A stretch of 64,000 nt of DNA from Escherichia coli (GCF_029227855.1 NZ_CP074356.1); one strand, 5' to 3'. Positions 2 to 8,940 are shown, numbered from the stretch's first letter. The notes: a model not told the origin generated them from the sequence alone. Translations and numbers: made by a program.

Positions 2-2974
2 GCTGCGGACCGGATCATCCGCTGGTCCGATAACGACCAGACGTGGAGCCGTTTCACCTACGATGAACAGGGCCGGTGCGTGAATGTCACCGGGGCGGAG
101 GGCTATTACAACGCCACGCTGGACTATGGTGACGGCTGCACCACCGTGACGGACGGCAAGGGCATTCACCGTTATTACTATGATCCTGACGGCAATATTC
201 TGCGGGAAGCAGCGCCGGACGGCAGCACCACCACGTATGAATGGGATGAATTCCATCACCTGCTGGCCCGTCACTCCCCTGCCGGGCGGGTGGAGAAATT
301 TGAATACAACGCCGCACACGGTCAGTTAAGCCGTTACACGGCGGCAGACGGCGCGGAGTGGCAGTACCGCTATGATGAGCGCGGCCTGCTCAGCAACATC
401 ACCGACCCTGCCGGGCAGACGTGGACACAGCAGTGTGATGAACGCGGCCTGCCGGTAAGTCTGGTGTCGCCACAGGGCGAAGAGACCCGGCTGGCATACA
501 CCGCTCAGGGGCTGCTGTCGGGAATATTCCGCCAGGATGAACGGCGTCTGGGCATAGAGTACGACCACCACAACCGGCCGGAAACACTCACCGACGTGAT
601 GGGCCGTGAACACCACACCGAATACAGCGGTCACGACCTGCCGGTGAAGATGCGCGGCCCCGGCGGTCAGTCAGTGCGGTTGCAGTGGCAGCAGCACCAT
701 AAACTGAGTGGCCTTGAGCGCACTGGCACCGGCGCGGAAGGGTTCAGCTATGACCGCCACGGCAACCTGCTGGCCTGGACGGACGGCAATGGTGTTGTCT
801 GGACAATGGAGTACGGCCCGTTCGATTTGCCGGTGGCGCGAACGGACGGTGAAGGCCACCGCTGGCAGTACCGCTATGATAAAGACACGCTGCAACTGAC
901 AGAAGTCATTAACCCGCAGGGTGAGTCATATCTTTATGTTCTGGATAACTGCGGCCGGGTGACGGAAGAGCATGACTGGGGCGGCGTGGTCTGGCGTTAC
1001 CGCTATGACGCCGATGGCCTGTGTACCGCCAGGGTCAACGGCCTGGAGGAAACCATCCTCTACAGCCGGGACGACGCAGGCCGCCTGGCAGAAGTCATCA
1101 CGCCGGAAGGCAAAACGCAGTATGCGTATGACAAATCCGGCAGGCTGACGGGTATCTTCAGCCCGGACGGCACATCACAGCGCACCGGCTATGACGAACG
1201 CGGGCGGGTGAATGTCACCACTCAGGGCCGACGGGCCATTGAATACCACTACCCCGATGAACACACCGTCATCCGCTGTATCCTGCCACCGGAAGATGAA
1301 CGCGACAGACACCCCGGTGAATCCCTGCTGAAAACCACGTACCGCTACAACGCAGCCGGAGAACTGGCAGAGGTCATCCTGCCGGAGGATGAGACGCTGA
1401 CGTTCAGCCGTGATGAGGCAGGACGTGAAGTGCTCCGGCACAGTAACCGGGGTTTTGCCTGTGAGCAGGGCTGGAATGCAGCCGGTCAGCTTACCAGCCA
1501 GCGCGCCGGACTTTTCCCGGCAGAAGCCACATGGGGCGGGCTGCTCCCCTCACTGGTACGGGAGTACCGTTACGACAGCGCGGGCAATGTGTCGGCTGTC
1601 ACCAGCCGGGAAGATTACGGACGGGAAACTCGCCGGGAGTACCGGCTGGACCGGAACGGCCAGGTCACGGCGGTGACAGCCTCAGGCACCGGGCTGGGCT
1701 ATGGCGAAGGCGATGAGTCCTATGGCTATGACAGTTGTGGCTACCTGAAGGCGCAGTCTGCGGGCAGGCACCGGATAAGTGAAGAGACTGAGCGGTATGC
1801 CGGAGGCCACCGGCTGAAACAGGCCGGAAACACGCAGTATGACTATGACGCCGCAGGCCGGATGGTCAGCCGCACCAGACACCGTAACGGCTATCGCCCG
1901 GAAACAGAGCGGTTCCGGTGGGACAGCCGGGACCAGCTGACCGGGTATTGCAGCGCACAGGGTGAACAGTGGGAATACCGCCACGACGCCAGCGGCAGAC
2001 GGACGGAAAAACGCTGCGACCGGAAGAAAATCCGCTTCACGTACCTGTGGGACGGCGACAGTATTGCGGAAATCCGGGAATACCGCGATGATAAACTGTA
2101 CAGCGTAAGGCACCTGGTGTTTAACGGCTTTGAGCTGATAAGCCAGCAGTTTAGCCGGGTACGGCAGCCGCACCCGTCCGTGGCCCCGCAGTGGGTGACG
2201 CGGACGAATCATGCGGTGAGCGATCTGACGGGCCGTCCGCTGATGCTCTTTAACAGTGAAGGTAAAACCGTCTGGCGACCGGGACAGACCAGCCTGTGGG
2301 GGCTGGCACTCAGCCTGCCCGCGGACACCGGCTACCCGGACCCGCGCGGGGAACTGGACGCGGAAGCCGACCCCGGCCTGCTGTATGCAGGACAGTGGCA
2401 GGATGCGGAATCCGGGCTGTGCTATAACCGGTTCCGGTATTACGAGCCGGAAACAGGGATGTACCTGGTGAGTGATCCGCTGGGGTTGCTGGGGGGTGAG
2501 CAGACTTACCGGTATGTGCCGAATCCGTGTGGGTATGTTGATCCTTTGGGATTAGCAACATGTCCCATAATCAGACAACGGGTGCTGGCTAACCTTGAAG
2601 CCAGTCGGGCAGCAAGGGCTGCATCTAATTTTGGTAAGAAAAATATCTATGATTTTATCAAGGCAACTCAATCTGCTATCCCTGGCACCTCTATCCCAAA
2701 ATCTTTTGAGATTATAACTGCTAATGGTACTTTCTGGGTACACCCAAATGCTACAAAACATATGGCTGAATATTTGACTCGGAACGGTCTCTCACATTCA
2801 ACTTCTGTAGAGAGCCAAATAATGTTAACAAGTTTTCACGAAGCTGTAAGTTTGGCTAGTGCTCAAGGTATAAAGTATGAAGAAATGATGAATGTTGGCG
2901 GCTGGGAACTAGTATTTAGTCAAGCTAAATCTGACTCGGCTTTATCAGTTATTAAACATGCTCTTTATAAATGA
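2..2974 (+). CDS. Rhs-family polymorphic toxin, 5'-truncated by the window edge; YD-repeat core ending in a DPLGL motif, then a ~140-aa C-terminal toxin domain of unassigned family
   Basis: The reading frame is open from position 2 to the stop at 2974. Repeated YDxxGR(L/V) motifs run throughout, and the core ends with RYYEPETGMYLVSDPLGL...YVDPLGL followed by a lower-GC extension (ATCPIIRQ...KHALYK). Confidence 0.85.
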   Translation, partial: AADRIIRWSDNDQTWSRFTYDEQGRCVNVTGAEGYYNATLDYGDGCTTVTDGKGIHRYYYDPDGNILREAAPDGSTTTYEWDEFHHLLARHSPAGRVEKFEYNAAHGQLSRYTAADGAEWQYRYDERGLLSNITDPAGQTWTQQCDERGLPVSLVSPQGEETRLAYTAQGLLSGIFRQDERRLGIEYDHHNRPETLTDVMGREHHTEYSGHDLPVKMRGPGGQSVRLQWQQHHKLSGLERTGTGAEGFSYDRHGNLLAWTDGNGVVWTMEYGPFDLPVARTDGEGHRWQYRYDKDTLQLTEVINPQGESYLYVLDNCGRVTEEHDWGGVVWRYRYDADGLCTARVNGLEETILYSRDDAGRLAEVITPEGKTQYAYDKSGRLTGIFSPDGTSQRTGYDERGRVNVTTQGRRAIEYHYPDEHTVIRCILPPEDERDRHPGESLLKTTYRYNAAGELAEVILPEDETLTFSRDEAGREVLRHSNRGFACEQGWNAAGQLTSQRAGLFPAEATWGGLLPSLVREYRYDSAGNVSAVTSREDYGRETRREYRLDRNGQVTAVTASGTGLGYGEGDESYGYDSCGYLKAQSAGRHRISEETERYAGGHRLKQAGNTQYDYDAAGRMVSRTRHRNGYRPETERFRWDSRDQLTGYCSAQGEQWEYRHDASGRRTEKRCDRKKIRFTYLWDGDSIAEIREYRDDKLYSVRHLVFNGFELISQQFSRVRQPHPSVAPQWVTRTNHAVSDLTGRPLMLFNSEGKTVWRPGQTSLWGLALSLPADTGYPDPRGELDAEADPGLLYAGQWQDAESGLCYNRFRYYEPETGMYLVSDPLGLLGGEQTYRYVPNPCGYVDPLGLATCPIIRQRVLANLEASRAARAASNFGKKNIYDFIKATQSAIPGTSIPKSFEIITANGTFWVHPNATKHMAEYLTRNGLSHSTSVESQIMLTSFHEAVSLASAQGIKYEEMMNVGGWELVFSQAKSDSALSVIKHALYK

Positions 2975-3504
2975 CGATTATGCTTACATTAGAAAATGAA
3001 ACAAACTACAAAGATGTTGTTGTTAATATAGATGAATTTGTACCTTTTGATATAACTTTTGGAAAGGGGAGCGAACAGTGTTTGTACTGGAGAGGCGGCA
3101 ATGGTAAAAGTTCTTTGGTTGAAGTTGGGTTAAATATGTACAGCGGAGAAGTAAGTAACATCACACTAGCAAATATCGATTCAGGTGAAATTAACATTAC
3201 AGATGAGATGTTAGCCAACAACCTTCCTGAAATACAAGGGTCTGTTATATTTCAGACAAGCGAGTGGCTTAATAAAGACATTTCCGAATACTCAAACAGA
3301 TTTATTGATGATTTTGATTGCAATATCAAGTTAATAATTGGTAGTAATTACATTAAATTATTATTTAAAAAAGCAACAAATCCCATTTGTTATATCATTA
3401 ATAGGAATATAAGATTTGGTTTTTCTTTGAGTAGGGAACTTTCGACATTGGAAATATTAGACCTCAATCAAGAAAAATTAGATATTCTAAAGTTATTTAA
3501 ATAG
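2971..3504 (+). CDS. Putative cognate immunity protein for the upstream Rhs toxin domain
   Basis: A 177-aa ORF whose ATG overlaps the toxin stop (ATGA at 2971-2974). It is AT-rich and sits immediately downstream of the toxin, the usual toxin-immunity arrangement. Confidence 0.55.
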   Translation: MTIMLTLENETNYKDVVVNIDEFVPFDITFGKGSEQCLYWRGGNGKSSLVEVGLNMYSGEVSNITLANIDSGEINITDEMLANNLPEIQGSVIFQTSEWLNKDISEYSNRFIDDFDCNIKLIIGSNYIKLLFKKATNPICYIINRNIRFGFSLSRELSTLEILDLNQEKLDILKLFK

Positions 3505-3995
3505 TTTTAGTGTTTGAAACTTACCGAGAGATGATAGCTATGAATGAATACAAAAACATCCATCTTGGAGGAAACAATGGAATGTTAATCCATTAAAAAA
3601 CATACTTCAATATCTTTAGTGAAGAAAGAGTTGTATGAAAGAAATATATCTTATGTGAGCGACATGATGCATGCTAATTATATTATTGGCCGGAAATTTT
3701 ATGATGATAGCAAAAAGGAGGGGTTATTTCTGTAAGAATGGATATACCCGCAGGGTTTGAACCAGACATTTATTTGTTGAAGTCTAAGATCCAAATGGAA
3801 GCATTTATATCCCTCAGATATTATGCGTTGACGGGTTGATAAAGATACTTTTAGAGGGTTAATAAATGGAGAACGTATAATAAATCTCTTAAACAAACTA
3901 TAACCTGTACTAATGAAAAAAATGGGAATAGATAAGTTAATAGCCTATTCTAAAAATGGTAAAGTGGTTTTACTTCCAAAATAATGGAGTTTAGT

Positions 3996-4427
3996 ATGAA
4001 AATCGAAGCTAATTCCCTTACTCATCCCTATGACTACAACGCCTCACTGAACAATTATTTACATTATTTTGAGAATTTCTCTCGTAATGACTGGAATAAA
4101 GATTCATGTGGAGGATATTTTACTTTTAGAGATGATGACAGAGAGTGTGTTTTGTTTTTTGTGAATTATGGTGATAATTTTTCATTGCGCTATGATTGTA
4201 CACAAAGTTCTGATGGAATAGTGTCATGCTGGTATAGTAACCATGAAGATGATAAAATGAATATCATCGTCGATGCTGATACAGAACAATTTATCCCTTT
4301 AGGTTCTTGCTTACCTCCTGATATTACTTTATCAGTAATAAAAGATTTTTTCAAAAATCCTTTAGAGAAATCAAAAAAAGTAAAATGGATGAATGCAGAT
4401 GACATTGACTGGTCATCTGTGTATTAA
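3996..4427 (+). CDS. Hypothetical protein, possible orphan immunity protein
   Basis: An ORF of ~143 aa (from MKIEANS; an upstream ATG at 3984 is also possible) with AT-rich composition, lying in the island downstream of the Rhs toxin. No recognisable catalytic motif. Confidence 0.4.
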   Translation: MKIEANSLTHPYDYNASLNNYLHYFENFSRNDWNKDSCGGYFTFRDDDRECVLFFVNYGDNFSLRYDCTQSSDGIVSCWYSNHEDDKMNIIVDADTEQFIPLGSCLPPDITLSVIKDFFKNPLEKSKKVKWMNADDIDWSSVY

Positions 4428-5289
4428 AGTTGGATTGGATAATTATCTGTTTCAAAAATCATTAAATTTAGAACCTATCTGTTCAACAGAGCTGCCTTGA
4501 ACAGCAGGTTCTTTTATGATGTCCAGGAGCGAATATGCCTGTGATGTCTGGCACTCAGCATCTGACTGACCTGGACTACTGATCCTACTCACACAGGGAG
4601 CTAGACCTGGAAGCAACCTACTGTAAGCAGTGCAGTAGCAGCCCACCTCACATCAGTCCTTGCAAGGTGTGGGCCTTTGTGATCTTGCTCTGTATTGCTG
4701 AGATCCTCAGGAAGGACTCGAAATTTAATCAGGAAGGCCGTTGCTAAAAATCAAAAAATAAATTCAAGAGCAATTTCTAAAACTTTTGAATCTACTGTAT
4801 CGGATGAGGTTTTCACTCCTTTCCAAAAGGTGAGTTTTCAAGCATTCAAGTTTCTGTTATGACCAAAACTTCACCATTTAACACTAATCCGAGTATTATG
4901 TTACCATGAAGAAAAAAGATATTAGATTTGCAATATCCATTAACTCCAACTCAAGTAAGATAGAATTAATGGAAAAATTAAAAACATAATCCCAGGGCTT
5001 ATTGAAATAACTCCCAGTGCATTAAGAGAAGAAAAAACATGGTAGTTATTGAAGATAATGATCTTTATGACTCTATAAAAGCAGAGGGAGTTGATGGATG
5101 GATGTATTATAAATTCATATTATCCATATTCCCATTAAAGGGAGTAGACACAACATTAGAATATCAACGGAAATTATCTTTTCTTTTCTTAAAGAAATTA
5201 AAAGATGCGGGTCTGTTAGGTGAACTTATATGCGAGGATGATTTTCATGACTGATGACCTCTACATATATCCTCAGTTCGTGGCTGGTA

Positions 5290-5631
5290 TTACATGATCT
5301 GACAGGGAAAGATCGTAGCGAAATCAAAAAAGACGTGGATTTCCCGGAAGCCGGTGAAGACACGGCGCTCTGCGACAAGGAGACTAAACCGCCGAGGATA
5401 GCCCAGGGCAGCAGCAACGTTTTTATCAACAATCAGCCTGCCGCACGCCAGGGAGACAAACTGGAGTGCAGTGCGGCGATCGTGGAAGGTTCGCCGGACG
5501 TCTTTATTGGGGGTGAGCAGGTCACCTATCTGGATATCCAGCCGGAGTTCCCGCCGTGGCAGAGAATGATCCTGGGGGGAATAACGATAGCCAGCTATCT
5601 TCTGCCGCCAGCGCAGGGAAAGATCACGTAA
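5290..5631 (+). pseudogene. PAAR-domain fragment, probably the C-terminal part of the N-terminal PAAR region of a T6SS-type Rhs or PAAR protein
   Basis: A GC-rich segment inside the 5254..5631 ORF encodes IAQGSSNVFINNQPAARQGDKLECSAAIVEGSPDVFIGG, matching the PAAR motif pattern. The composition shifts abruptly near 5290, and no credible N-terminus or Rhs core follows. Confidence 0.5.
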
Positions 5632-5700
5632 CGCTGCTTTTTTGTACTAAATAATTCGCACTAAATGTTCAATAATTGAGATATTCCTTATTACCTAAAT
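5614..5700 (+). repeat. Direct repeat copy 1 (~90 bp; cagggaaagatca...tttgtactaaataattcgca...gatattcc.tattacctaaa)
   Basis: About 80% identical by eye to 7645..7738. It lies at the 3' junction of the PAAR fragment. Confidence 0.6.
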
Positions 5701-5750
5701 ACAGTTCCACCAAGATTACCTAAACCCAAATGAGGTAAAAGATAGTGGGT

Positions 5751-6112
5751 ATGAATAAAAATGAAATCCATTTCCCTATAGGATATGGTTGGTTGAATGA
5801 AAAAAAATTATTGGCACCAGTGAATTTAGCCAATTAGAACCATGGTTTTATCTAGATGAGAACAGGTGTTTTTTTGCGAATAAAAAATGGCCAAATGTCA
5901 TAGGTGAACAATTATTCGCTTTTGCTAAACGTCAAGATAATGATGAATTGGCTTGTTTCAAAATTAATGAATCTGGAGTCTGTGAGGGTGTTTATTTAAT
6001 TAATGGGTGGACTCCTAACGGGTTTGATATTATACAATTTTACCCTGATTTTTGGGAATGGGTACATTTGGTTATACAAGATGTCTCGGAGTGGATTGAT
6101 AATAAAGGATAA
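5751..6112 (+). pseudogene. Frameshifted immunity-like gene; any family resemblance (e.g. SMI1/KNR4-like) is tentative
   Basis: ATG at 5751 gives MNKNEIHFPIGYGWLNEKKLLAPVNLAN then a stop. The +1 frame continues KKIIGTSEFSQLEPWFYLDENRCFF...EWIDNKG to 6112. The frame break coincides with an A8 homopolymer near 5803-5810. Confidence 0.35.
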
Positions 6113-6141
6113 TTTGAAACAAAAGTAAAAAACCGCCTTCA

Positions 6142-6840
6142 TTGAAGGTAACGTGGAGTGGTGGGCGGAGCAGCCTGCCCGCAGACACAGACTACCCGGA
6201 CCCGCGCGGGGAGCGGGACGCGGAAGCCGACCCCGGCCTGCTGTATGCAGGACAGTGGCAGGATGCGGAATCCGGACTGTGCTATAACCGGTTCCGGTAT
6301 TACGAGCCGGAAACCGGGATGTACCTGGTGAGTGATCCCCTGGGGTTGCTGGGGGGTGAGCAGACTTACCGGTATGTGCCTAATCCTAGTGGGTATGTTG
6401 ATCCTCTGGGATTAGCAACGTGTCCTATACTCAGACAGTGGGCGCTGACTAACCTTGAAGCCAGTCGGGCAGCAAGGGCTGCATCTAATTTTGGTAAGCC
6501 TCTGGTCCAGCGAAATAAAACGATTGGCGATAAAGTAAGGGATATGATTGCCAAAGAGAGGGGAACCACTCTAATTGAACAAAATTATAGAGTGACAGGA
6601 GGATTAAAGCGTATTGACGTTGTTGATGGAGTAACGGGTATAGAATCTAAAGTCGATCGAACAGGGTTAACAACCCGAGTACGGCAAGAGGTAGCGCGGG
6701 ATATTAAGATTTTGAGAAGTGAGCAACTTGATCAAATTGAATGGGTGTTTACAAGAAGTTCAACTACAGGGAAGATTGGGCCAACTAAACCACTTGAAGA
6801 TCTTTTAAATAAACATGGTATACCGATTATTTATCGATAA
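6142..6840 (+). CDS. Orphan Rhs C-terminal module: core-end repeat (DPLGL) plus an alternative toxin domain, possibly a PD-(D/E)xK-like nuclease
   Basis: Positions ~6176-6500 are near-identical to 2310-2630 (the end of the first Rhs core plus 26 codons). The sequences then diverge into a different C-terminal domain containing RIDVVDGVTGIESKVDRTG. The reported ATG at 6142 is probably not the native start. Confidence 0.7.
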   Translation: MKVTWSGGRSSLPADTDYPDPRGERDAEADPGLLYAGQWQDAESGLCYNRFRYYEPETGMYLVSDPLGLLGGEQTYRYVPNPSGYVDPLGLATCPILRQWALTNLEASRAARAASNFGKPLVQRNKTIGDKVRDMIAKERGTTLIEQNYRVTGGLKRIDVVDGVTGIESKVDRTGLTTRVRQEVARDIKILRSEQLDQIEWVFTRSSTTGKIGPTKPLEDLLNKHGIPIIYR

Positions 6841-6851
6841 GGAGTGATAGT

Positions 6852-7409
6852 GTGAAACTCAAACCGATTGGTGACTTTTTAAACAAAAATGGGTTTATAA
6901 AAAATGGTAACAATGATTTTTATAAAGTTCATGATAAGTTTGTAAATTGTATAAATTTTCAAAAAAAGAGTACAGGTGATATTTTTTTTATAAACACAGG
7001 TGTTCATCCTGTGTTCGAAAATTTTTGCAATGAACCACCGAAAAAAGAAATAGATTGTTACATCCGTAACCGTGTGTGTGATGGACTAAGTATATCTTTG
7101 CTGCATTCTTTTGAAGGTAGTGAGTTTGTTATCAGTGAGATAAAAAACAAAGCGTTTTGTTTTTTTGAATACTTTGATTCATTGAATAAAATATTCGATG
7201 CTATTCGTGTTGTAGATATTGAAGAGAGAAATATTTGCGATGAGCTAAGTGGTGTAAGCAGCGTAAGATTAGCTTTGATGTGTATGAACTACCAGTATGA
7301 GAAAAAAAAATTTAGCCTTGTTTCTGATTTTGCGAACTATGGTCTTGCTATATCTAGAGGCCCGGTACCGAAAAAAGCATTTAAGGATATGATAAAAATA
7401 ACAGAGTGA
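6852..7409 (+). CDS. Putative immunity protein for the orphan Rhs toxin module
   Basis: A 185-aa ORF with a GTG start 12 bp after the toxin stop, preceded by AGGAG at 6841-6845. AT-rich. Confidence 0.5.
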   Translation: MKLKPIGDFLNKNGFIKNGNNDFYKVHDKFVNCINFQKKSTGDIFFINTGVHPVFENFCNEPPKKEIDCYIRNRVCDGLSISLLHSFEGSEFVISEIKNKAFCFFEYFDSLNKIFDAIRVVDIEERNICDELSGVSSVRLALMCMNYQYEKKKFSLVSDFANYGLAISRGPVPKKAFKDMIKITE

Positions 7410-7419
7410 TACCTAATCC

Positions 7420-7650
7420 GGTGTAATACTTGCTGCCTGTGTACCGCGAAGATTAACGGCCGGGAGGAAACTATTCTCTACAACCGGGACGCCACAGGCC
7501 GCCTGGCAGAAGTCATCACGCCGGAAGGCAAAACGCAGTATGCGTATGACAAATCCGGCAGGCTGACGGGTATCTTCAGCCCGGACGACACATCACAGCG
7601 CACCGGCTATGAAGAACGCGGGCGGGTGAATGTCACCACTCAGGGCAGGG
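7420..7650 (+). pseudogene. Internal Rhs core fragment
   Basis: About 215 bp nearly identical to 1021-1230 of the first Rhs core (encoding ...EETILY..RLAEVITPEGKTQYAYDKSGRLTGIFSPD...). Homology is lost at the cagggaaagatca junction. Confidence 0.6.
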
Positions 7651-7738
7651 AAAGATCATCCAAAGTACACTTTTTGTACTAAATAATTCGCATTTTATGT
7701 TTAAAAATGGAGATATTCCTCATTACCTAAAGCTGTTT
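7645..7738 (+). repeat. Direct repeat copy 2 (~90 bp), immediately upstream of the ISAs1-family transposase
   Basis: Matches 5614..5700 in sequence. It may be the left end of the H-repeat element or a recombination scar. Confidence 0.6.
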
Positions 7739-7739
7739 T

Positions 7740-8940
7740 TTATTGCTTATACATGATCAAATACTCCTTACATAATTAAGGAGAACAAAATGGAACTTAA
7801 AAAATTGATGGAACATATTTCTATTATCCCCGATTACAGACAAGCCTGGAAAGTGGAACATAAATTATCGGATATTCTGCTGTTGACTATTTGTGCCGTT
7901 ATTTCGGGTGCAGAAGGCTGGGAAGATATAGAGGATTTTGGGGAAACACATCTCGATTTTTTGAAGCAATATGGTGATTTTGATAATGGTATTCCTGTTC
8001 ACGATACCATCGCCAGAGTTATATCCTGTATCAGTCCTTCAAAATTTCACGAGTGTTTTATTAACTGGATGCGAGATTGCCATACTTCAGATGATAAAGA
8101 CGTCATCGCAATTGATGGAAAAACACTCCGGCATTCTTATGACAAGAGTCGCCGCAAGGGAGCGATTCATGTCATTAGTGCGTTCTCAACAATGCACAGT
8201 CTGGTCATCGGACAGATCAGGACGGATGAGAAATCCAATGAAATTACAGCTATCCCTGAACTTCTTAACATGCTGGATATTAAAGGAAAAATCATCACAA
8301 CTGATGCGATGGGTTGCCAGAAAGATATTGCAGAGAAGATACAAAAACAGGGCGGTGATTATTTATTCGCTGTAAAAGGAAACCAGGGGCGGCTAAATAA
8401 AGCCTTCGAGGAAAAATTTCCGCTGAAAGAATTAAATAATCCAGAGCATGACAGTTACGCCATTAGTGAAAAGAGTCACGGCAGAGAAGAAATCCGTCTT
8501 CATATTGTTTGCGATGTCCCTGATGAACTTATTGATTTCACGTTTGAATGGAAAGGACTGAAGAAATTATGCGTGGCAGTCTCTTTTCGGTCAATAATAG
8601 CAGAACAAAAGAAAGAGCCAGAAATGACGGTCAGATATTATATCAGTTCTGCTGATTTAACCGCAGAGAAGTTCGCCACAGCAATCCGAAACCACTGGCG
8701 CGTGGAGAATAAGCTGCACTGGCGTCTGGACGTGGTAATGAATGAAGACGACTGCAAAATAAGAAGAGGAAACGCCGCAGAATTATTTTCAGGGATACGG
8801 CACATCGCTATTAATATTTTAACGAATGATAAGGTATTCAAGGCAGGGTTAAGACGTAAGATGCGAAAAGCAGCCATGGACAGAAACTATCTCGCGTCAG
8901 TCCTTGCGGGGAGCGGGCTTTCGTAATCTTGCCCTGCGTT
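7740..8940 (+). mobile_element. ISAs1-family (H-repeat) insertion element; boundaries approximate
   Basis: Contains one intact transposase ORF. The terminal inverted repeats could not be delimited by eye. Confidence 0.4.
7790..8926 (+). CDS. ISAs1-family transposase (H-repeat-associated protein; YhhI/YdcC/YbfD-like)
   Basis: A 378-aa ORF ([32 protein letters not shown]...[31 protein letters not shown]) recognised as the H-repeat protein family found inside Rhs elements. Confidence 0.85.

Follow-up and report, generated by a model that had tools for sequence, protein, structure and literature searches.

Toxin tips left behind by rearrangement of rhs genes are best known from Salmonella Typhimurium LT2, where the orphan rhs-CT/rhsI module is found 3' of a full-length, T6SS-linked rhs gene and comprises a tip fused to a short stretch of core, with an immunity gene of its own behind it (PMC3967940, PMC7043789). 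The LT2 orphan is without initiation or export signals, and can be mobilised by recombination between shared core segments; fusion of the orphan tip to the main core, and its activation by this route, have been shown experimentally (PMC3967940). In S. Typhimurium, transcription of both the main and the orphan tips starts from an internal promoter, 89 nt before the PxxxxDPxGL codons, translation starts at a CTG, and the tips behave in a toxin-antitoxin-like manner; this promoter has been reported in E. coli rhs genes too (PMC7043789). A second point of comparison is the set of clades Tox-REase-1 to -10 of Zhang et al. 2012 (PMC3482391), restriction-endonuclease-fold tips carried by RHS and other polymorphic toxins. 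The stretch of Escherichia coli DNA analyzed here (64,000 nt, hereafter the window) holds an orphan of the LT2 type, but in another species, at another locus (between cusS and nfrB) and with different toxin and immunity families. Recombinants were obtained by experiment in Salmonella and none at the cusS-nfrB locus; at the E. coli locus the full-length ancestral form can be seen directly in two natural isolates. In our reading, to which we give a probability of about 75%, positions 6171-7409 once formed the tip of the T6SS-associated PAAR-Rhs effector gene in the cusS-nfrB island and were later displaced; they encode a predicted PD-(D/E)xK nuclease and a DUF4304 protein that is its predicted immunity protein.

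Bases 5900-7700 of the window are 100% identical to the chromosome of E. coli JNEC-KY178 (NZ_AP045174.1), where the region, bounded by cusS and nfrB, holds vgrG, a DcrB-related gene, an rhs gene of 4830 nt, several small ORFs, rhs fragments and an ISAs1-family (H-repeat) transposase gene. In that genome vgrG and the DcrB-related gene are found directly upstream of the rhs gene, in the part that lies outside the window, which marks the region as a T6SS PAAR-Rhs effector locus. The DcrB-related gene (Eag/DcrB-type, DUF1795) presumably has a chaperone role. All features described below are on the + strand. The window begins within the main rhs gene (4830 nt in NZ_AP045174.1), of which the 3' part, 1-2974, comprises core followed by the installed C-terminal tip at 2639-2974. 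An ORF of 177 aa at 2971-3504 is, by its position, the candidate immunity gene of this tip. No match was found to the main tip (2555-2974; installed toxin of ~112 aa) in Pfam or NCBIfam, nor to the 177-aa ORF in NCBIfam; PGAP names the product of the latter 'RNA-binding protein'. At the other end of the element, a 212-nt mid-core rhs fragment (7435-7646), a 94% copy of 1017-1228, lies 3' of the orphan's immunity gene, as it already does in the full-length arrangement described below, and the transposase gene (7790-8926) closes the rhs element before nfrB.

The space between the main module and the orphan contains low-GC ORFs at 3984-4427 and 5039-5254 and an ORF remnant at ~5800-6112, all of them possible orphan immunity genes or what is left of such genes. 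ORF 3984-4427 had no match in NCBIfam, and Pfam gave no support for the remnant at ~5800-6112 as a truncated SUKH/SMI1 immunity gene. In the same space, the 300 nt at 5314-5613 repeat, at 95% identity, PAAR-proximal sequence from the 5' part of rhs (L003 5234-5533), and a 91-nt sequence that follows this fragment (5609-5699) recurs, at 81% identity, at 7641-7731 just before the ISAs1 element. The fragment and the recurrence look like the remnant of an earlier H-repeat junction.

The orphan is tied to the main gene by a 328-nt direct repeat. Base-by-base comparison of 2311-2638 with 6171-6498 gave 94.2% identity, far beyond chance, with longest exact runs of 60, 50 and 41 nt; a repeat search alone returned 6171-6470 as a 94% copy of 2311-2610. 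Outside either end of the repeat, identity drops to about 27%, the random level, and the boundaries are sharp. The two copies are in the same orientation, 3.86 kb apart, with the orphan downstream of the end of the main gene at 2974. In the main gene the repeat is made up of the final 244 nt of core and an 84-nt linker after DPLGL. In the orphan it covers the retained 3' end of the core, in which the PxxxxDPxGL motif is encoded at 6385-6414 (PNPSGYVDPLGL), within the last 81 core codons carried by the repeat, and a linker of 28 codons, ATCPILRQ..NFGK, at 6415-6498. These 28 codons past DPLGL (ATCPI[L/I]RQ..ASNFGK) are common to the main and the orphan tips, and beyond them divergence is complete. 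Because the repeat extends 28 codons beyond DPLGL, two different toxins have a common N-terminal linker. The sequence-only reading had described ~6176-6500 as a duplicate of the end of the first Rhs core; the duplication is confirmed, at 6171-6498, but it is not confined to the core end and takes in the linker codons. The post-DPLGL segment, ATCPI.RQ..L.NLEASRAARAASNFGK (2555-2638 and 6415-6498), is also present in the Salmonella homologue, and in the Pectobacterium, Yersinia, Morganella and Proteus homologues DPFGL is joined directly to the toxin, without the 28-residue segment. The segment may serve as a linker, a plug or an aid to entry.

The orphan ORF extends from a nominal TTG at 6142 to the stop codon at 6838-6840 and would encode 232 aa. 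No Shine-Dalgarno sequence was found before this TTG, and comparison with the main gene base by base found no rhs homology upstream of 6171. The fragment is without a credible start of its own, and in the orphan state the toxin has neither start nor export signals. PGAP annotates it as an rhs pseudogene 'missing N-terminus'. The arrangement is that of an orphan Rhs module, as had been proposed from the sequence alone: all that is kept of the core and linker is the final 328 nt, including PxxxxDPxGL, the N-terminal PAAR/shell part and initiation signals are absent, and a full-length rhs gene lies upstream. The extent of the PGAP pseudogene varies: in NZ_AP045174.1 it covers only the core remnant (L001 12273-12528, window 6172-6427), leaving the toxin domain at 6499-6840 without a feature, and in other strains it reaches the stop codon.

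The history of the locus can be followed in other genomes. Of 5426 complete E. coli genomes, 114 (about 2%) carry the toxin and immunity DNA (6490-7409), always on the chromosome. Two of these, PapRG-06-3 (from a baboon, Gambia) and A15 (from an otter, Mexico), encode a full-length Rhs protein of 1611 aa that ends in the orphan's toxin (97% nucleotide identity), with the same DUF4304 gene next to it and in the same cusS-vgrG-DcrB-rhs / cusS-nfrB locus. When the window was compared by BLAST with the PapRG-06-3 locus, 1-2638 ran collinear with the core as far as the linker end, and 6171-7600 was collinear from 328 nt before the linker end through the toxin, the immunity gene and the 212-nt mid-core fragment. 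The window thus differs from the PapRG-06-3 arrangement by 3.5 kb of inserted DNA (2639-6170) with a copy of the 328-nt direct repeat on either side. Within this insertion are the present tip, its putative immunity gene (2971-3504), unassigned ORFs, the 300-nt rhs copy (5314-5613) and an H-repeat end remnant. The orphan form was found in 110 of the 114 genomes, and a junction-spanning query placed its left boundary at exactly the same base in every one. In the other four the tip is contiguous with more core: two are the full-length genes, one (WL297) is 5'-truncated and one (2013C-4282) matched WL297 identically in the junction query. A common left boundary in 110 genomes argues for a single displacement event that was then inherited. 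Taken with the full-length form at the same locus in two genomes, it indicates that the orphan is a displaced ancestral tip which recombination could restore, a history in keeping with the classical model for the displacement of Rhs tips.

The sequence-only reading had also suggested that homologous recombination could swap the orphan tip onto the main gene. This possibility is supported by the occurrence of the same tip and immunity gene on full-length Rhs in PapRG-06-3 and A15, by the collinearity of the window with that locus apart from a repeat-flanked insertion, and by the Salmonella precedent (PMC3967940). Exact runs of 41-60 nt are on hand for such an exchange; no recombinant was observed in the source strain itself.

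The toxin domain occupies residues 120-232 of the orphan ORF (6499-6840), 113 aa with a basic pI of 9.9. The peptide quoted in the sequence-only reading as a nuclease-like signature, RIDVVDGVTGIESKVDRTG, is found at residues 157-175. Residues 120-232 had no significant match in Pfam, NCBIfam, PHROGs or PDB sequences, and Pfam searches with the whole ORF, 9 close homologues and 52 diverse members gave no significant match either. The best sub-threshold Pfam hits were DpnII-MboI (2e-3, in 3 of the 52 members) and Tox-REase-3 (i-E 0.062, in 1 of 52), none reaching E<=1e-3. Searches of the PDB by sequence, with the single sequence and with the family profile, returned only designed proteins at E>0.05. 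The match to a Tox-REase-type model that the sequence-only reading had put forward as a check was therefore not obtained: Tox-REase-2, -3, -5, -7 and -9 had no significant match to the ORF, to the 9 close homologues or to the 52 diverse members.

A word-indexed protein search found 14 relatives of the domain, all short, in E. coli, Salmonella, Pectobacterium, Yersinia, Morganella and Proteus. The hint from these that the domain might exist solely as orphans was dismissed once 1.84 billion representatives had been searched exhaustively with a profile; this search found carriers of up to 3630 aa and a total of 937 matches at E<=1e-3, 306 of them at E<=1e-10. Of the 161 proteins retrieved, 158 have the domain no more than 12 residues from the C-terminus, and its carriers are most often Rhs/YD proteins; in the large members tested, RHS/YD-shell or Rhs-core models were found. 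In four members (P0044, P0094, P0060 and P0043) the Rhs core ends 130-320 residues before the toxin domain, from which it appears that these proteins have extra modules between the cleavage site and the nuclease. Across 142 members N125, G129, D159, E168, K170, F203 and G213 are invariant, and E146, G154, R156, S169, G172, D187, W201, S206, T209 and P214 are nearly so. The invariance of the D, ExK, N, G, F and G positions holds over sets of 52 to 142 diverse members.

The fold of the domain was predicted with AlphaFold2 from a 52-sequence alignment, giving pLDDT 96.4 and pTM 0.88; an earlier run with 9 sequences had given the identical topology at pLDDT 83. The elements of the model follow in the order helix, three strands, helix, strand, helix, strand, and contain the alpha-beta-beta-beta-alpha-beta core. 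The top 39 structural matches all have the PD-(D/E)xK fold and are mostly nucleases. The closest are NucS/EndoMS, SfsA, nicking and type II restriction enzymes and the DNase CdiA-CT EC869, and the remaining matches are made up of restriction enzymes, nicking enzymes and CRISPR ancillary nucleases; Foldseek with the toxin-domain model was uninformative. The predicted catalytic residues are D159 (6616-6618), E168 (6643-6645) and K170 (6649-6651), with the near-invariant E146 at 6577-6579. In the model D159 lies on the second strand (E35-43) and E168-x-K170 on the third (E46-52), the canonical geometry, and all three residues are the same in 142 of 142 members. From the fold of the 39 neighbours and the canonical placement of D159 and E168-x-K170, we accept the predicted domain as PD-(D/E)xK in its fold and active-site motif. 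The PD-(D/E)xK-like signature noted from the sequence alone, with its D, E and K, is well supported to this extent.

At the level of sequence the domain stands apart from the toxins of this fold that have been described. It has no detectable sequence similarity to CdiA-CT EC869 (4g6u), TseT/Tox-REase-5 (7dym, 9oz0) or CdiA-CT YPIII (4zqu); its signature of N..GD, G.RR.DV, IESKVGRT and W.F..S..TG..GP differs from theirs, and the immunity families differ too. Its best structural neighbours are AF1548 and NucS, which are not toxins, rather than the known PD-(D/E)xK toxins. AF1548 and NucS (EndoMS) (1y88, 2vld, 5gke) come from archaea, serve in housekeeping or repair and have extra domains; they are not secreted as toxins, and gave no sequence-profile match. 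The Tox-REase clades share the concept, but those represented by Pfam models (Tox-REase-2, 3, 5, 7 and 9) do not match the domain, and the comparison with Tox-REase-1, 4, 6, 8 and 10, which are not in Pfam, was limited to one-line motif summaries. The summary for Tox-REase-1/-6, 'E, D, ExK, Q', is compatible with E146, D159, E168-x-K170 and Q/E at 181-182 without being diagnostic, and the immunity partners of these two clades, Imm-PA2201 and Imm49 (PMC3482391), are not DUF4304. The dual-immunity nuclease reported in JBC in 2026 (PMC13392607) was considered as a relative and discarded; it is a beta-beta-alpha-metal DNase and is unrelated.

The toxin domain is followed by the gene for a 185-aa protein (6852-7409; WP_000769435.1) with a GTG start and an AGGAG ribosome-binding site at 6840-6844, 7 nt before the GTG. 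The ORF and the ribosome-binding site are as the sequence-only reading had stated, but the gap to the toxin ORF is 11 nt, not 12. PGAP names the product a DUF4304 domain-containing protein. The PF14137 match (i-E 6.7e-10) joins residues 7-75 to positions 2-75 of the 115-position model and so concerns the N-terminal part only. That this gene is the dedicated immunity gene, as had been proposed, is made more credible by its DUF4304 identity, since DUF4304 genes also lie 3' of distant members of the toxin family; in E. coli the adjacency of toxin and DUF4304 gene is found in all copies. Among seven distant relatives of the toxin viewed in their own contigs, three have a DUF4304 gene 0-12 nt downstream, and the two of these three neighbours that were retrieved are similar to the 185-aa protein (phmmer 3e-9 and 1e-5). 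Two further relatives have a pair of homologous 104-110-aa proteins downstream (L005:7254-7586, L006:11752-12066), and the last two have a pair of homologous 172-188-aa proteins there (L007:2915-3481, L009:7874-8392). The proteins of these pairs are unannotated, match within their pairs by BLASTP at 6e-24 and 2e-25, each occur in two unrelated contigs, and are candidates for alternative immunity families. With DUF4304 in three of the seven relatives and the two small-protein pairs in two each, the toxin family appears to use at least three immunity types, DUF4304 being a recurrent partner and not the only one. Several immunity types for one toxin family are usual among polymorphic toxins. No mention of DUF4304 was found in the set of papers searched. 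We would go further only tentatively, at slightly less than even odds, and propose that the tip belongs to a large, undescribed or uncurated family of polymorphic-toxin nucleases (at least 937 clusters at 50% identity) with the signature N-x3-GD ... G-x-RR-x-DV ... IESKVGRT ... W-x-F-x2-S-x2-TG-x2-GP, distinct from all ten Tox-REase clades, which would give DUF4304 its first function, as immunity, and would have at least two further unnamed immunity families as partners.

On the orphan as a displaced tip, several aspects of its activity can be viewed in more than one way. PD-(D/E)xK-fold CdiA-CT toxins of Burkholderia pseudomallei provide a precedent for an RNA substrate, and a toxin with the fold and module described here could likewise attack RNA, such as tRNA, instead of DNA. 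We think this unlikely: the nearest neighbours in structure have DNA as their substrate or come from families of DNA repair or restriction, and Zhang et al. 2012 argued that most toxin REase clades with the classical D-(E/Q)xK site attack DNA (PMC3482391). These neighbours and this argument make DNA the more likely substrate. Whether expression from within the core fragment could give the orphan a life of its own, as a type II toxin-antitoxin-like module with its immunity protein, is a separate matter and one compatible with the displaced-tip reading. The Salmonella tips are transcribed in this way and start at CTG (PMC7043789); the orphan keeps 125 nt upstream of ~6296, the equivalent of the Salmonella P2 start, and has an extended -10-like motif, TGcTATAAC, at 6280-6288, some ~7-9 nt upstream of that position by analogy with the Salmonella promoter (PMC7043789). 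The motif is also in the main copy of the repeat, at 2420-2428. In-frame CTG/GTG/ATG codons, possible starts, are found at 6319-6330. A sigma-70 consensus scan of 5600-7800, however, gave no more sites than shuffled sequence and did not list the 6280-6288 motif, and the Salmonella toxin is of a different family; self-expression of the orphan is improbable on this evidence.

Somewhat greater weight, though still well short of an even chance, is due to the view that the toxin fragment is a functionless, decaying pseudogene and that only the DUF4304 gene is maintained, against E. coli that fire the toxin. The TTG at 6142 without a Shine-Dalgarno sequence, rhs homology that begins only at 6171 and the PGAP pseudogene call all favour it, as does a change private to the source strain. 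Codon 172 (6655-6657) is GAT (Asp) here and GGT (Gly) in all other copies examined, sister orphan copies included, and 141 of 142 family members have Gly. Over 1801 nt the G-to-A change at 6656 is all that separates the source strain from ST2747; it falls in the IESKVGRT motif, two residues past the predicted catalytic lysine K170. Residue 156 is Lys in the source strain and in the sister orphan copies, and Arg in 138 of the 142 members. Given Asp at a near-invariant glycine and Lys in place of the consensus Arg, the strain's copy is possibly inactive, and Gly172Asp may be what disarms it. All three amino-acid changes from the full-length copy (R to K, G to D and P to S) lead away from the family consensus. 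Decay of the fragment as a whole is harder to reconcile with a frame that stays open through its 232 codons in 110 genomes, with Gly172 in the sister orphan copies, and with the kind of substitutions seen: 7 of the 10 that separate the toxin from the full-length copy are synonymous (pN/pS 0.14), and pN/pS is 0.23 for the immunity gene, a pattern that, on small counts, does not suggest free decay.

The displaced-tip reading would then take the following form. An incoming 3.5-kb segment with a new toxin tip and a new immunity gene would have been inserted at the 3' end of the core, leaving downstream the DUF4304 gene and the old tip, the latter still joined to 328 nt of core and linker. On a full-length Rhs protein the tip would be injected by the T6SS and released at the DPxGL autoproteolytic site. 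The released domain would probably cleave nucleic acid of the target cell, most likely DNA, with metal ions held by D159 and E168 together with K170, and, in the producing cell and its kin, the DUF4304 protein would bind the toxin and block it. While the tip is an orphan, the immunity gene could still protect against neighbours that fire the same toxin, and RecA-dependent recombination between the 328-nt repeats could return the tip to the main gene.

The module is a standard orphan Rhs toxin/immunity pair, with a toxin from a large PD-(D/E)xK family that lies outside the libraries searched. Since both the architecture of an orphan Rhs tip with its immunity gene and the PD-(D/E)xK fold are well known, the general understanding of such systems is unchanged. 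The domain is nonetheless carried by about 2% of complete E. coli genomes and by hundreds of clusters elsewhere, where it is unannotated or called a pseudogene, and a family model could be made from the family alignment. DUF4304 acquires a function that can be tested, that of immunity protein for this toxin family. Finally, the natural before-and-after states at one site, full-length in 2 strains and orphan with a fixed boundary in 110, make this locus a clean system for the turnover of Rhs tips in E. coli.
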